Part shown: positions 32,764 to 37,905 of the stretch, piece after piece
Layout of the letters: the number at the start of each line of letters is the position of its first letter
How positions within the stretch are numbered: position 1 is the first letter of the stretch
Assembly: GCA_018580065.1 (NCBI GenBank)
Contig: GCA_018580065.1_4845.1
Reading direction: 5' to 3' (one strand)
Length of the DNA: 46,716 nt
Origin: a phage
Program-made: the position numbers and the translations under genes
Notes under the pieces: generated by a model
What the model was told of the DNA's origin: nothing
What the model saw: only the letters and a program-made list of their open reading frames with translations
Databases searched by the model: none

Positions 32764-32792
32764 AAAAGCCCGCAAACGCGGGATTTATTATT
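32764..32792. terminator. bidirectional intrinsic terminator
   Basis: AGCCCGC-aaac-GCGGGAT followed by TTATTATTT. Confidence 0.65.
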
Positions 32793-33030
32793 TAACAATC
32801 CATTTTGTAACGGCTGGCCTTAAATCTTCCTTTCTGAAAACGCCACCAGTAAGTCTCTCGGCATCAATTGCTGCTGTAGCGCTAATTCTTCCTCTTGACA
32901 CCCACTGATTGACAGCCTGTTTTGACACACCAAGAAACCTTGCCAGTTGTGATTGCCCTCCAACATAATCAATCAGCTCTGACAGCTTCGTCTGTTCCAT
33001 TTCTCTTATCTGTTCTGCGATGCTTTTCAT
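32788..33030 (-). CDS. XRE-family (Cro/CI-type) HTH transcriptional regulator
   Basis: SQLARFLGVSKQAVNQWVSRG helix-turn-helix; lone minus-strand gene with its own TTGACG-17-CATTAT promoter. Confidence 0.6.
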   Translation of the reverse strand: MKSIAEQIREMEQTKLSELIDYVGGQSQLARFLGVSKQAVNQWVSRGRISATAAIDAERLTGGVFRKEDLRPAVTKWIVK

Positions 33031-33059
33031 GTGTTTACCTCTGCTATCTGTATGCAGCA

Positions 33060-33088
33060 ATAATGAACTCAAAAAAAATTTTCGTCAA
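33060..33088 (-). promoter_or_regulatory. sigma70-like promoter for the HTH regulator
   Basis: Minus-strand TTGACG (plus 33083-33088), 17-nt spacer, CATTAT (plus 33060-33065). Confidence 0.5.
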
Positions 33089-33164: not shown

Positions 33165-34007
33165 ATGAGCTTATCAATGATTCAAAAACCAAAACCAGCA
33201 GCGCCAATCATAACATTGGTTGGTACTCCAGGTGTAGGCAAGACAACTCTTGCGGCGCTATTCCCAAACCCAGTGTTTATTCAGGCTGAAGAGATCACTG
33301 GTGTTTTTGATGACTGGGATGATGAAAAGAAACCTGATTCATTTCCTGTTCTGAAGCGCGCTGACGTTAAACGCAAAACAAGCACAAAGGATGATTTGCT
33401 GTCACAGCTACGCGCATTAATTACTGAGGAACATAATTACAAAACGCTTGTAATTGACTCAATCACAAGCCTGCATTCAATGTTTGAGCATGAGGTTTGT
33501 GAAAATTACGGTGTTGACAACGTAGGTTCTGCGGCTGGTGGTTACAACAAAGGATATATTGTTGTTTCTGAAATGCACGCTGAAATAATAAATGCATGTA
33601 AGTATCTTCGCAAAGAAAAAGGGATGAGCATTATTTATCTTGCACACGCAGGTGTTAAAAAGATGAAGAATCGCCCTGATGCTGATGAATACACTGTTTA
33701 CACACTTGACATGCATGACGCTTCAGTTTCTGGTTATGTGAATCTGAGTGATGCTGTTATTTACATCAGGAATGAGGAGTTCGTGAAAGGAACTGAGACT
33801 GATAAGAAAGGTCAGGTGACCAAGTTTGGAAAGGTTGTTCAGACTGGTCAGCGAGTTCTTATCACCTCTGGTGATGGTCGGGTTGGGTATGTTAATGCAA
33901 AAAACAGATATAACCTTGAACCTGAAATTCCTTTTGAAAAAGGTGAGAATCCACTTTTGAGTGAGATTAAATATTATGCATCTCTACGAGATAACCAAAC
34001 AGCTTAA
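33165..34007 (+). CDS. Sak4-like RecA-fold recombination ATPase
   Basis: Walker A LVGTPGVGKTT near N-terminus; size and neighbourhood match phage Sak4-type proteins. Confidence 0.65.
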   Translation: MSLSMIQKPKPAAPIITLVGTPGVGKTTLAALFPNPVFIQAEEITGVFDDWDDEKKPDSFPVLKRADVKRKTSTKDDLLSQLRALITEEHNYKTLVIDSITSLHSMFEHEVCENYGVDNVGSAAGGYNKGYIVVSEMHAEIINACKYLRKEKGMSIIYLAHAGVKKMKNRPDADEYTVYTLDMHDASVSGYVNLSDAVIYIRNEEFVKGTETDKKGQVTKFGKVVQTGQRVLITSGDGRVGYVNAKNRYNLEPEIPFEKGENPLLSEIKYYASLRDNQTA

Positions 34008-34455
34008 TGAACTGCTGGCGATGGAGGATATTCCACGGGAGCAGATTGAAGATACCATAAATCTTATTGAAGAGGAGTTTGAAGGAAAGGCTGAAATGGT
34101 TGCTGCTTACATTCGTGAGCTTGAAGCTGATGATGCCGGACTTAAGTCCGAGATTGACCGTCTTTCTGAGCGTAAGCGTGTTTTAGTTGCGAAGATTGAT
34201 AACCTTAAAGATTATCTTCGTCAAAACATGATGGCGTCAGGAAAGACAGATATCAAAGGTAAGTTGTTCAGTATCACTCTTGGCAAACCGTCACCAGTTC
34301 TTGATGTGTTTGTCCCTGTTGAGCAGCTTCCTGAGCAGTACCGGGTTGTGAAAGTGTCGGCAGATAACGCAGCAATTAAAAATGCGATAAAAGCCGGGAT
34401 TGAAATTAATGGTTGTGCCATCACCGACGGCAAACCAAAACTGATCATCAAATAA
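33976..34455 (+). CDS. Gp157-like protein (tentative)
   Basis: Coiled-coil N-terminus; adjacent to Sak4-like gene; ATG 33976 (ORF track from GTG 33961). Confidence 0.4.
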   Translation: MHLYEITKQLNELLAMEDIPREQIEDTINLIEEEFEGKAEMVAAYIRELEADDAGLKSEIDRLSERKRVLVAKIDNLKDYLRQNMMASGKTDIKGKLFSITLGKPSPVLDVFVPVEQLPEQYRVVKVSADNAAIKNAIKAGIEINGCAITDGKPKLIIK

Positions 34456-34472: not shown

Positions 34473-34994
34473 ATGGGTTTCTGGAATCTTTCTGACGGTA
34501 AAGCTGTTGAGTCTAAATCTGAATTTGAACTGGGTGGTGGTTTCGAAGTAATTCCTGATGGCAGCCGTGTTCTTGCTGCCGTTGAAGAATGTAAAGACGA
34601 TCAGTGGGAAGGTGAGCGATTCTTCAATCTTAAGTGGCGAATCCTTGAGGGTGATTATAAAAATCGCATCATCTTCCAGAAGCTGAAAGTATTTAGCTCA
34701 AAAGAAAAGCAGCGCGACAATGCTATCACTATGCTTGCAGCAATTGACGCAAACGCCGGTGGCAAGCTGATGGCTTCAGGTAAAGAGCCGACTGATTTTG
34801 CTATTGCTAGTGCGCTTGCAAATCGCCCAATGATTCTTCTTCTTCGCGTTTGGGAGTCTGAGGATAAGCAAAAAACTGGTAACTATGTGGCTGGTGTTTT
34901 CAGTCGTCAACAGACAAAAGCATCACCTACTACTAAGCAATCAGCGCCGTCTAACGAGCCGCCGATGGACTTTGACTCTGACGTGCCGTTTTAA
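34473..34994 (+). CDS. putative ssDNA-binding protein with E. coli SSB-like C-terminal tip
   Basis: C-terminus SAPSNEPPMDFDSDVPF nearly identical to E. coli SSB tip PSNEPPMDFDDDIPF; N-terminal domain does not look like a canonical OB-fold SSB. Confidence 0.55.
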   Translation: MGFWNLSDGKAVESKSEFELGGGFEVIPDGSRVLAAVEECKDDQWEGERFFNLKWRILEGDYKNRIIFQKLKVFSSKEKQRDNAITMLAAIDANAGGKLMASGKEPTDFAIASALANRPMILLLRVWESEDKQKTGNYVAGVFSRQQTKASPTTKQSAPSNEPPMDFDSDVPF

Positions 34995-35015: not shown

Positions 35016-35040
35016 AAAGCCCCTTAACGGGGCTTTTAAT
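35016..35040 (+). terminator. intrinsic terminator
   Basis: AAGCCCC-ttaa-CGGGGCTT followed by TTAATT. Confidence 0.6.
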
Positions 35041-35051
35041 TGGTGGTTTAT

Positions 35052-35426
35052 ATGTACGAAGTTATCTGTGATTACTGCAATATTGCGACAAGACTAGCCA
35101 AAGGGAGTGAAATTTACCCACACAGACCAGACCTTTCGTCTCTTAATTTTTATCTGTGTGATTCTTGTGGTGCTTATGTTGGTTGCCATAAAAATGGTGA
35201 TGGTAAAAGGCCACTTGGGCGTGTGGCTAATGAAGAATTAAGGAAGGCAAAAAGCAAAGCCCATGCTGCATTTGATCCATTATGGAAATCAGGAAAAATG
35301 TCAAGAGGCTCTGCTTATTCTGCATTAGCTAGTTCGATGGGAATAAGAAAAGAGAAGTGTCACATAGGAATGTTTGATGTTAAGCAGTGCGAGCATGTTG
35401 TCGAGTGGTGCAAGGAGTTTGACTGA
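35052..35426 (+). CDS. zinc-ribbon protein
   Basis: CDYC...CDSCGAY...C cysteine pairs; ATG 35052 (ORF track from TTG 35040). Confidence 0.45.
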   Translation: MYEVICDYCNIATRLAKGSEIYPHRPDLSSLNFYLCDSCGAYVGCHKNGDGKRPLGRVANEELRKAKSKAHAAFDPLWKSGKMSRGSAYSALASSMGIRKEKCHIGMFDVKQCEHVVEWCKEFD

Positions 35427-37291
35427 TGAAATACACACTAAGGCCATACCAACAGGAAGCTGTTGATTCAGCTATGGCACACATTCGCAGCACAATCTCA
35501 TCATGCGTTATCATCCTGCCTACAGGTGCAGGAAAATCTATGGTTGTAGCAGAACTTGCATCTCGTATTTATGGTATGAGCAAAAAGCGAGTTTTGTGCA
35601 TTGCTCCCACGGCGGAACTCGTCACACAAAATCGCGCTAAATATCTTCTCACCGGAGAACCAGCCAGCATGTTCAGTGCAAAGGCTGGCCCCAAAAACCT
35701 GCGTCATCCGGTGGTGTTTGGTTCACCAGTTACAATCAAGAACTCAATAGAGATGTTTGGTGATAAGTATGGTGCTGTCATTATTGATGAGTGCGATGGA
35801 ATAACACCAACCATTAAATTTATTATTAATGAAATGAAGCGTCGCAATCCAAAACTGCGTGTTATTGGAATGACCGCTACGCCTTATCGCCTTGGAACTG
35901 GATACATCTACAAAGAGCATTACCTCGACGGTCCTACAGATGAAGAAACAGCCATAGACCCATATTACGACAAAGTCGTTTATGAGCTTGAGGCGAAATT
36001 CCTCATTGAAAACGGATACCTTACGCCTCCAGTAACAGAGCCTGTTTTTGACGAGTATGATACGTCTTGTCTTGAAAAAGATAAGTTGGGTCGGTACACG
36101 ACGGCTTCAGTGGAAAAGGCGATGGTTGGCAAAGGAAGGAAAACATCACGTATTGTTGAAGATATTATCCGTCGCTCTGTTAATCGGCGCGGAACGATGA
36201 TTTTTGCCAGCACCAAAAAACACGCTATGGAGATAATGGAGTCACTTCCTCCCGGTTCTTATAGTTATGTTTTTGGTGACATGCCGACAGCTGAACGCAA
36301 TAAGGCAATATCAGACTTCAAGGCGCAAAAAGTTAAATACATCGTTAACCAAAATATACTTACTGTAGGGGTTGATGTTCCTCATTGTGATCACATAGCA
36401 GTAATGAGAGCCACAGAATCACCAAGGCTCTATCAGCAAATAATTGGCAGGGGGACGCGTCTTTATGAAGGAAAGGAAGACTTTCTTGTCAGCGATTACG
36501 CAGGCAACATTCAGCGCCACTTTTCTGAGACTGGGGACTTGTTCACTCCAGAAATAAAAGCAACAAGGAAAAAACCATCCGTGCCAATGGATGTCAAATG
36601 CCCTCTTTGTGGCTTTATTAATGAATTTGGTGTGCGCCCAAATCCTGAAAATCTTGAAGTTGACAAGGAAGGTTACTGGCTGGATTTGGCGGGTGACAGA
36701 GTAATGATTGATATTTTTGATAAGTCAGGTGAAAAGATTGGAAGCAAGCCTATGCCTGCTCATTTTGGTAGGCGGTGTAAAAACTACGTTATGCATGGAC
36801 CACTAAGGGAAATGCATAGGTGTACTTATAAATGGTCGGTAAAGGAGTGTCCTGATTGTGGGTTTGAAAATGATATAGCGGCAAGAAACTGCACATCATG
36901 CGGAGCTGAAATCATTGACCCCAACCAAAAGCTAAAAGAAGAAGCTGACAGGCTTGATTCCTCTCCTTATGCAACCAAGCAATCAAACGTAACCATGATG
37001 AACATCATGAAGCATTACGTTTCAAGCGGTGAAGATTTGGTACACGTAAAATTTGCTATTGAACATAAACCATTTTTTGTTAGTAAGTTCTACAATCCAA
37101 ACTCTGAGAAGGGATGGATGAAGAAGGAGTGGGAAGAATTTTGTGAGAAGTGCTTTGGTGAACATAACATGTCAATTGATGATGCAATAGCAAAAAGAGA
37201 TGAGGCTGTCGCGCCATCAGTGATTATGTTCAGAAGAGACAAGGGTAGTAAATATTTCAACGTTAAAGGCATGTATTGGGGGGTATTATGA
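35426..37291 (+). CDS. SF2 DNA helicase with C-terminal zinc fingers
   Basis: Walker A ILPTGAGKS, Walker B VIIDECDG, helicase C-domain motifs, CPLCGF and CPDCGF...CTSCGA zinc ribbons. Confidence 0.8.
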   Translation: MKYTLRPYQQEAVDSAMAHIRSTISSCVIILPTGAGKSMVVAELASRIYGMSKKRVLCIAPTAELVTQNRAKYLLTGEPASMFSAKAGPKNLRHPVVFGSPVTIKNSIEMFGDKYGAVIIDECDGITPTIKFIINEMKRRNPKLRVIGMTATPYRLGTGYIYKEHYLDGPTDEETAIDPYYDKVVYELEAKFLIENGYLTPPVTEPVFDEYDTSCLEKDKLGRYTTASVEKAMVGKGRKTSRIVEDIIRRSVNRRGTMIFASTKKHAMEIMESLPPGSYSYVFGDMPTAERNKAISDFKAQKVKYIVNQNILTVGVDVPHCDHIAVMRATESPRLYQQIIGRGTRLYEGKEDFLVSDYAGNIQRHFSETGDLFTPEIKATRKKPSVPMDVKCPLCGFINEFGVRPNPENLEVDKEGYWLDLAGDRVMIDIFDKSGEKIGSKPMPAHFGRRCKNYVMHGPLREMHRCTYKWSVKECPDCGFENDIAARNCTSCGAEIIDPNQKLKEEADRLDSSPYATKQSNVTMMNIMKHYVSSGEDLVHVKFAIEHKPFFVSKFYNPNSEKGWMKKEWEEFCEKCFGEHNMSIDDAIAKRDEAVAPSVIMFRRDKGSKYFNVKGMYWGVL

Positions 37292-37743
37292 TTTTTCCAG
37301 AAGGCGTTAAGGTATATGGTGATTTAGATTACAGAAACAAAAAGTGCCCGTCAGAAGATGCTGAGCTTGAGACTTTTGTGAATCAGATAAGGAAGCTATA
37401 TCCTGACTTTGCAAGAGTTATGATTCATGTACCAAATGAAGGAAAGCGTAAAGGGTATGAAGTTGAAAACCTGAAGAAAAAAGGCGCGCTAAACTTCGGG
37501 GCGTCAGACATCATTATCATCGGAAAGCAATCATTCGTTATGGAGATGAAAAGAATGGATCATACTTTATCAAAATGGCAGCCCGGTCAAATGGCATACC
37601 TAAAGGCGGCAAAAGAATTAGGTTCCTTCGCGTGTGTATGCCTTGGCTGGGAAGCTGCAATGATGGCATTTAACGACTGGAGAGCAATGAATTACCCAAA
37701 CTATAAGAAACCATCAGAGCCATTGATATTTGATGGTTTTTAG
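37288..37743 (+). CDS. VRR-NUC domain nuclease
   Basis: 151 aa from ATG overlapping helicase stop (ATGA); VMIHVPNEG...GASDIIIIGK...EMKR motifs; ends at amber TAG 37741-37743. Confidence 0.6.
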   Translation: MIFPEGVKVYGDLDYRNKKCPSEDAELETFVNQIRKLYPDFARVMIHVPNEGKRKGYEVENLKKKGALNFGASDIIIIGKQSFVMEMKRMDHTLSKWQPGQMAYLKAAKELGSFACVCLGWEAAMMAFNDWRAMNYPNYKKPSEPLIFDGF

Positions 37744-37860
37744 CAACCACGCCAGCAATCAGGCCAACAACCGCAAAGACAACAGCAGCCACCAAAACAA
37801 CAAAGACCACAAGGAGGCAATGAGCCTCCGATTGACTTCGACGATTCGATACCCTTCTAG
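37744..37860 (+). other. in-frame post-stop extension encoding SSB-like disordered linker and acidic tip
   Basis: 38 sense codons after TAG translate to QPRQQSGQQPQRQQQPPKQQRPQGGNEPPIDFDDSIPF, then TAG. Confidence 0.5.
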
Positions 37861-37865
37861 ATGAT

Positions 37866-37905
37866 AAAACCAACCCCGCCGAAGCGGGGTTGGTTTTCCA
37901 TTGTT
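37866..37905. terminator. strong bidirectional intrinsic terminator
   Basis: 12-bp stem AACCAACCCCGC-cgaa-GCGGGGTTGGTT with flanking A/T runs; between convergent operons. Confidence 0.75.

Follow-up and report, generated by a model that had tools for sequence, protein, structure and literature searches.

Up to 80% of sak4 genes adjoin an ssb gene, coding for a single-stranded DNA (ssDNA) binding protein (SSB) (Hutinet et al. 2018, PMC5928155). The protein encoded by phage HK620, assigned by the authors to DUF669, is a bona fide SSB (PMC5928155). When its last six residues (NDYPPF, likened to DDDIPF) are removed the stimulation of Sak4 recombineering falls 10-fold, and the tail is also needed for the stimulation of annealing in vitro (PMC5928155). 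DUF669 has been linked to the SSB of phage N4; its members have acidic C-terminal tails and are found in phages that lack other SSBs, and highly evolved OB folds have been proposed for them (Kazlauskas et al. 2016, PMC4889955). RecT annealases recognise host SSB by its last 7 residues (bioRxiv 10.1101/2020.04.14.041095). Here we analyse a gene at 34473-34994 (+) in a 46.7-kb stretch of phage DNA (GenBank assembly GCA_018580065.1, contig GCA_018580065.1_4845.1), the whole of which is termed the window. An initial annotation had called its product a non-canonical protein, and this overstates the case, as the protein belongs to the known DUF669/PHROG 9002 family of phage SSBs with acidic tails (PMC4889955, PMC5928155). 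Thus the product is a known kind of phage SSB and a usual partner of Sak4, ordinary rather than uncharacterised. We estimate a probability of roughly 0.85 that it is the phage's own SSB, comprising a diverged OB fold and an acidic tip that docks Sak4 and probably clients of the host SSB too.

The open reading frame at 34473-34994 is real. The translated product has 173 amino acids followed by a stop codon, with the C-terminal end ...KQSAPSNEPPMDFDSDVPF. A Shine-Dalgarno-like GAGAGGA lies ~9 nt 5′ of the ATG, and the start is conserved, with every homologue in the alignment beginning M[GS]FWNLS. A word-indexed search returned 88 homologues, and a full HMMER profile scan 1104 members of the family. 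The protein matches PF05037 (DUF669) at 25.7 bits against a gathering cut-off of 21 (E 1.4e-5), residues 23-137 aligning with profile positions 10-123 of 138. This is a weak match, placing the subfamily of the window at the edge of the model; PF05037 is already assigned, in precomputed form, in most of the close homologues. There is a full-length match to PHROG 9002 'single strand DNA binding protein' (E 1.2e-67). A further profile, PHROG 378 'ssDNA binding protein', is matched both by our protein (E 1.4e-5) and by PrgE of the Enterococcus plasmid pCF10 (E 9.4e-8). RefSeq already names the orthologues in phages Sa179lw, Sf11 and YX3973 "single strand DNA binding protein", and the appropriate annotation for 34473-34994 is a DUF669-family phage SSB, partner of Sak4. 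Identity as a canonical SSB was rejected, since PF00436 gives no match at E <= 0.01. The NCBIfam SSB model PRK09010 matches residues 137-173 alone, scoring 26 bits where the cut-off is 260, and when the PDB was searched by sequence, using either the protein alone or two family profiles, the core matched nothing, SSB being matched by the tail only. A tblastn search of the window with the E. coli, Akira and ZX4 SSBs found no other SSB, returning two tail stretches and no OB domain. This agrees with the description of DUF669 phages in PMC4889955.

The N-terminal ~145 residues are unlike a canonical SSB in sequence, as the initial annotation had supposed, but the predicted fold is that of an OB domain. 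In the AlphaFold2 model (29 homologues) a block with a predicted local distance difference test score (pLDDT) of 76-90 covers residues 31-140, and the closest structural match to the model is PrgE. The diverged OB-fold core is placed at about residues 23-145 (34539-34907, +) with the order beta1-beta2-beta3, helices, beta4-beta5, and it is strongly conserved in the family, aromatic and basic residues included. Residues 148-173 are unstructured in the model, with pLDDT <50 except at residue 169. Taking together pLDDT, identity with E. coli SSB and conservation in the family, a disordered linker and acidic C-terminal tip are assigned to residues 146-173 (34908-34991, +). The initial annotation had held that an ordinary OB fold of normal length would make this a standard phage SSB. 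An OB fold of normal size is indeed predicted for the N-terminal domain, but it is of the diverged DUF669/PrgE type and not of the PF00436 type. Judged by sequence, then, the OB domain is not a member of the canonical SSBs, while the tip is of the ...DDDIPF kind.

How unusual is the host-like tip? The product terminates in SAPSNEPPMDFDSDVPF, of which the tip itself (NEPPMDFDSDVPF) is encoded by 34953-34991 (+). Its last 16 residues, APSNEPPMDFDSDVPF, can be set against APSNEPPMDFDDDIPF of E. coli SSB (PDB 1eqq), and 14 of the 16 are identical. Thus the near-exact copy of the host tip noted earlier is plainly present. We designate SNEPPMDFDSDVPF the tip peptide of the window SSB, corresponding to DDDIPF in the host. 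The tail is the sole part of the protein with a match in the PDB, its last ~40 residues matching E. coli and Klebsiella SSB (phmmer E 1e-3; hhalign with the tail only E 3.4e-7), and both the phmmer and the hhalign alignments to canonical SSB are confined to the last ~18-45 residues. Such a tip is not peculiar to this phage, however. It is a property of the whole family. Tip statistics were taken over 163 representatives of the DUF669-type family, among which F is the last residue in 141 and [IVLM][PG]F the last three in 126, mostly as ...DDDIPF. Conservation of the type D-x-D-[IV]-[PG]-F extends down to 42% identity in the homologue alignment. The residues before the tip are more distinctive; a pre-tip of the EPx..DF type occurs in only 3 of the 163 representatives, and the window's APSNEPP plus tip is nearer to the host than is the family norm. 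Two clusters of homologues, P0066 and P0067, run on for ~15 residues beyond ...DDDIPF (APFGLQYANHAIYVL), and the tip is therefore internal. From their sequences they look like stop-codon-loss variants, in which the internal tips are presumably non-functional.

The genomic context is that of a recombination module, and here the earlier proposal is upheld. A 280-amino acid Sak4-like RecA-core ATPase/ssDNA annealing protein is encoded at 33165-34007 (+) (AAA_24 E 1.9e-27; PHROG 124 'Sak4-like ssDNA annealing protein' E 2.5e-46), followed by a siphovirus Gp157-like gene at 33976-34455 (+) (Sipho_Gp157 E 6.5e-38; PHROG 253) and then the SSB gene. In relatives with 42-49% identity the DUF669 gene comes straight after the AAA_24 gene, within the order Prim-Pol (divergent strand), helix-turn-helix (HTH) gene, AAA_24/Sak4, DUF669 SSB, YqaJ exonuclease, superfamily 2 (SF2) helicase and a gene of ~136-138 amino acids. 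These features suggest how the protein might function. The PrgE-like OB fold of residues ~23-145 would coat the ssDNA made in replication and recombination, while the disordered linker of residues ~146-173, with its acidic ...DFDSDVPF tip, would be exposed on the DNA-bound protein as a docking peptide. With the HK620 pair as the model, the tip would recruit the neighbouring Sak4 to SSB-covered ssDNA and stimulate annealing. Its near identity to the SSB tip of enterobacteria makes it most likely that it engages proteins that dock on the host SSB as well, and binding of host partners is plausible despite the DSDV/DDDI difference. Other phage proteins, possibly the helicase or the primase, may perhaps be partners of the tip too.

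The comparison with HK620 is instructive in both directions. The HK620 SSB (HkaK/Abc1, NP_112044), like that of the window, is a small phage SSB outside PF00436 encoded in a sak4 (AAA_24) operon, with a disordered C-terminus bearing a host-like aromatic tip (NDYPPF, compared with DSDVPF in the window). Yet it belongs to PHROG 743 rather than 9002, there is no significant similarity between the two in sequence or profile, and it has extra C-terminal helices. The tip of the window is much nearer to that of the host, and in the window Gp157 lies between sak4 and ssb. Alignment by hhalign of the family profile with HK620 SSB (as a single sequence and as a 44-sequence profile) and with PrgE was not significant, the alignments being topologically sensible. 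Pfam and NCBIfam gave no matches to either protein, so that the assignment of HK620 SSB to DUF669 was not reproduced by hmmscan.

The other known systems can be placed in a similar way. The DUF669 (PF05037)/N4-type SSBs share with the window a Pfam match, an acidic tail, the lack of another SSB in the genome and a predicted diverged OB fold, although the 16-residue likeness to the enterobacterial SSB tail goes beyond a generic DUF669 acidic tail. PrgE (PDB 8S4S/8S4T, PMC11137577) is only 13-18% identical to the window's protein and has no Pfam match. Its sequence of 144 amino acids ends soon after the OB domain and appears to have no comparable linker and tip. PrgE binds double-stranded DNA in addition to ssDNA, in filaments. 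The canonical SSBs (PF00436; E. coli, Akira and Vi II-E1) have the same organization of OB domain, disordered linker and acidic ...D(D/S)D(I/V)PF tip, but in sequence no homology can be recognised between their OB domain and that of the window. T7 gp2.5 and Enc34 ORF6 (DUF2815) are phage-specific OB-fold SSBs, with an acidic tail whose terminal aromatic residue recruits replication partners. Neither was among the top structural matches of the window's protein, and there is no family match.

A number of points weigh against our interpretation as a Sak4-docking SSB. The binding of ssDNA by the 173-amino acid protein and every contact with a partner, whether Sak4 or a host protein, are inferred. 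Gp157 separates sak4 from ssb in the window, unlike the direct adjacency in the distant relatives. Two positions of the tip differ from those of the host, with DSDV instead of DDDI. The confidence of the AlphaFold model is moderate overall (mean pLDDT 72, predicted template modelling score 0.63, 29 sequences). The connection to HK620 SSB in sequence was not reproduced (no Pfam match at E <= 0.1; profile-profile E 0.12), so that its basis is a best structural neighbour common to both, the HHpred statement of the published paper and the naming by NCBI. Lastly, a perfect 34-nt identity between the tail DNA and E. coli ssb, described below, is partly luck, the synonymous variation in the tails of relatives indicating that the ancestor of the lineage was already host-like.

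The DNA encoding the tail provides an indication of its origin. By local alignment, the 34 nt at 34941-34974 (+) are identical to DNA at the 3′ end of the chromosomal ssb of E. coli, and weaker similarity goes on ~20 nt beyond the stop codon, to about 35015. The last 54 nt, stop codon included, are identical at 46 positions. In a blastn search of E. coli genomes the tail matched at 83.8% over 74 nt (best E 2e-11), the hit being the chromosomal ssb in 5425 of 5426 genomes. Proline is encoded by CCG four times in the tail, compared with 8% of proline codons in the early genes of the phage, and the probability of 10 identical codons arising under phage codon usage is ~1e-6. In Klebsiella-phage cousins the OB-domain DNA is ~81% identical, but the similarity ends at the linker, just before the tail, and these tails have only EPP[MV]DF..D[DV]PF in common with that of the window. 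Since the 34-nt exact match uses codons that are rare in the phage, the last ~17 codons and part of the 3′ untranslated region (3′ UTR) were probably acquired by recombination from a host-type (canonical) ssb. Close relatives differ at synonymous sites in the tail, and so the capture would date to the ancestor of the clade. A hairpin AAAGCCCC-TTAAC-GGGGCTTT followed by a T-run can be read in the sequence after the SSB gene (35016-35037, +); it was not picked up by a consensus terminator scan. The segment 34953-35219, comprising the tip, 3′ UTR, hairpin and the 5′ half of the following DUF3268 gene, is 84% identical to the DNA after the canonical OB-fold ssb of Salmonella phage Vi II-E1 (2579-2845). 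Fragments of the DUF3268 gene and of the 3′ end of a VRR-NUC gene persist in Vi II-E1 (window 37632-37700 against Vi II-E1 2893-2961). As the same tip, 3′ UTR and hairpin follow a canonical ssb in that phage, the two unrelated SSB bodies have been swapped, with the joint inside the tip-coding sequence.

A six-frame scan reveals exactly two tip-like stretches in the window. The other, at 37744-37857 (QPRQQSGQQPQRQQQPPKQQRPQGGNEPPIDFDDSIPF), was the basis of the earlier claim that two proteins of the phage carry the host-type tip. Close inspection shows instead that it is a start-less piece of an ssb gene, lying behind the stop codon of a VRR-NUC-like nuclease gene. That gene (37288-37743, +) encodes 151 amino acids from ATG 37288, ending ...LIFDGF-TAG, and matches PHROG 824 (E 1.9e-39). 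Its product has no match in Pfam or NCBIfam and is called 'VRR-NUC domain protein' or 'type III restriction endonuclease' in relatives. The stub begins straight after the TAG (37741-37743) in the same frame, and consists of 38 codons from the 3′ end of a canonical ssb (37744-37860, +), encoding a linker and the tip ...GNEPPIDFDDSIPF with a stop at 37858-37860. It contains no ATG, GTG or TTG start, and no annotated protein includes it. A strong intrinsic terminator follows at 37866-37897 (+), with a 14-bp stem containing 8 GC pairs and then a T-run; it closes the early operon and faces a convergent tailspike gene (39897-37987, minus). The suggestion that several phage enzymes are routed through the SSB interaction hub thus loses its direct support, the second tip being the stub of a lost ssb.

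The DNA that runs from the VRR-NUC stop to the terminator, stub included (37742-37891), shares 88-94% identity with the 3′ end and terminator of ssb genes from Jersey-like phages, for example Akira, Segz_1 and KFS-SE2, where the OB-fold ssb is the last early gene ahead of a convergent tailspike. In sister phages possessing a real ssb, the genes run helicase, VRR-NUC-like gene, exoVIII, Erf, SSB and then a tail fibre gene. From the identity with the 3′ end of ssb and this gene order we conclude that the stub is a remnant left by loss of the exoVIII-Erf-SSB block. In sequence terms it is most likely the 3′ stub of a deleted canonical ssb at a mosaic joint, a scar or recombination patch. The phage with the stub uses Sak4, Gp157 and the DUF669 SSB in place of the lost block. 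The terminators and tailspikes downstream switch exactly at the tip, and given that the DNA beyond it differs between contigs, the ~40 nt of tip-coding DNA behaves as a homology patch for exchange of the terminator and tail-fibre/tailspike. In two contigs of the lineage of the window (L019 and L020) the tip codons, terminator and downstream DNA are those of a second lineage, in comparison with L026, L027 and L032. The VRR-NUC-like protein itself has a C-terminal appendix of ~15 residues (PNYKKPSEPLIFDGF, 37699-37743) that is absent from remoter homologues, which end near ...DWRA. Its last residues (EP-LIFDGF; ...IQIDSF in the second lineage) are faintly like a degenerate SSB tip, and this may be coincidence.

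Other explanations of the tip-bearing protein must be weighed against that of an SSB serving Sak4. The protein could be a decoy or hijacker, whose host-identical tip titrates or redirects ExoI, RecQ, PriA, chi, Ung and others from the host SSB, with the coating of DNA secondary. The closeness of the tip and preceding APSNEPP to the host sequence, and a tail whose DNA looks to have been taken from a host-type ssb, are both what this would predict, and with the canonical ssb lost from the end of the operon the DUF669 SSB is the only tip-bearing protein that is made. Yet the strong conservation of the OB core in a phage with no other SSB makes it unlikely that coating is secondary, and as DDIPF-type tips are found throughout the family, as in ordinary SSBs, the tip alone is no sign of a decoy. 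We regard this role as very unlikely as the principal one; it overlaps with that of an SSB docking Sak4, and does not exclude it. The protein might alternatively be a single-strand annealing protein in its own right rather than an SSB that assists Sak4. T7 gp2.5 combines ssDNA binding and annealing in one protein, and the homologue P0073 in Yersinia phage vB_YenS_P400 is named 'ssDNA annealing protein' in GenBank. A gp2.5-like annealase was nevertheless rejected, there being neither a structural nor a family match to gp2.5, and the prospect of such an activity is slight indeed.

A different question is raised by the stub, as low-frequency readthrough of the VRR-NUC TAG (37741-37743) would generate a nuclease-linker-tip isoform able to dock on the partners of SSB. 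The stub lies in frame behind the stop in 16 of 16 related contigs and is uninterrupted in 15, the exception being a nonsense codon within the stub of one contig (L022), which counts against translation. The arrangement spans two VRR-NUC lineages that are ~65% identical, in which the stubs differ in length and sequence, so that an intact in-frame extension behind a conserved stop is found in both. All the indels observed in the stub are multiples of three, and in frame 0 the ratio of nonsynonymous to synonymous substitution (dN/dS) is 0.065. The base 3′ of the stop is C or A, which is a weak termination context in E. coli, and this provides a lead only. But the stop is never a sense codon, and no stop-less fusion of VRR-NUC and tip (~190 amino acids) was present among 5.8 billion proteins searched. 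The stop varies between TAG, TAA and TGA among the relatives, and TAA is normally tight. Remoter VRR-NUC homologues that were examined have no such C-terminal extension. The conservation is also explicable by an origin in ssb, for both stubs are ~88-94% identical to real ssb 3′ ends with their terminators at the same position in sister phages, that of the second lineage, which reads TGA-ATG-KPSNTQKPPANEPPMDFDDDIPF, sharing 93% identity with the 3′ end of ssb from Klebsiella phage ZX4; this fits a deletion scar. Moreover, dS in the stub is 0.91, 5 times the 0.19 of the adjacent VRR-NUC gene, so the stub seems to have been repeatedly imported from functional ssb donors, and the signature of purifying selection is confounded. 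We therefore favour a remnant of a deleted ssb, and consider readthrough unlikely. The broader proposal is similarly doubtful. In this, the stub would be expressed by readthrough of TAG or TAA in the first lineage to give a tip-bearing nuclease, and in the second by reinitiation at TGA-ATG as a micro-ORF giving a free tip peptide of ~23 residues, the ~40 nt of tip DNA being separately kept as a homology patch. Were it true, the phage would deliver to the SSB-interaction hub of the host either a structure-specific nuclease or a competing peptide, and the ~40-nt patch would let unrelated SSB genes and downstream tailspike modules swap between phages. A translated stub would represent a new means of attaching a nuclease to that hub.

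What our analysis adds is modest and chiefly evolutionary. A structurally distinct SSB has probably gained the tail of the host's by DNA exchange, and the tip-coding sequence serves as a mosaic joint; these are small additions. In this group of phages the tip-coding DNA marks the joints of the canonical/DUF669 ssb swap, of the exoVIII-Erf-SSB deletion and of tailspike module exchange. The findings fit the view that the C-terminal tip rather than the OB domain sets compatibility with host and annealase, as suggested by the portability of RecT-SSB and by the HK620 Sak4-SSB pair. This is of practical relevance in picking Sak4/SSB pairs for enterobacterial recombineering.

The window belongs to a siphophage in the Buchananvirus/Cedarrivervirus group, and its module is 91-97% identical to those of phages Sa179lw, Sf11, YX3973, ECO95 1-6-1 and gmqsjt-1. 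A Prim-Pol primase gene is located upstream of the module. The Gp157 start is taken as ATG 33976, as annotated in Sa179lw; the list of open reading frames gives the alternative GTG 33961. Downstream of the SSB gene there is a DUF3268 zinc-finger protein gene at 35040-35426 (+) (PF11672 E 4.5e-38) and an SF2 DNA helicase gene at 35426-37291 (+) (Pfam ResIII, Helicase_C and DEAD; PHROG 16), leading into the VRR-NUC-like gene. Just upstream of sak4 is a small Cro-like HTH gene (32788-33072, minus), and a sigma-70-like promoter that matches at 10 of 12 positions (32940-32969) faces the recombination operon. The divergent HTH/Sak4 layout is common to distant relatives. Two apparent slips of labelling were seen in related phages. 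The DUF669 SSB of Yersinia phage P400 (418-969 in its contig) is called 'ssDNA annealing protein', and in Klebsiella phage YX3973 (NC_054652.1, 958-1123) the gene that follows the SSB is called 'terminase large subunit', where the window has the SF2 helicase.

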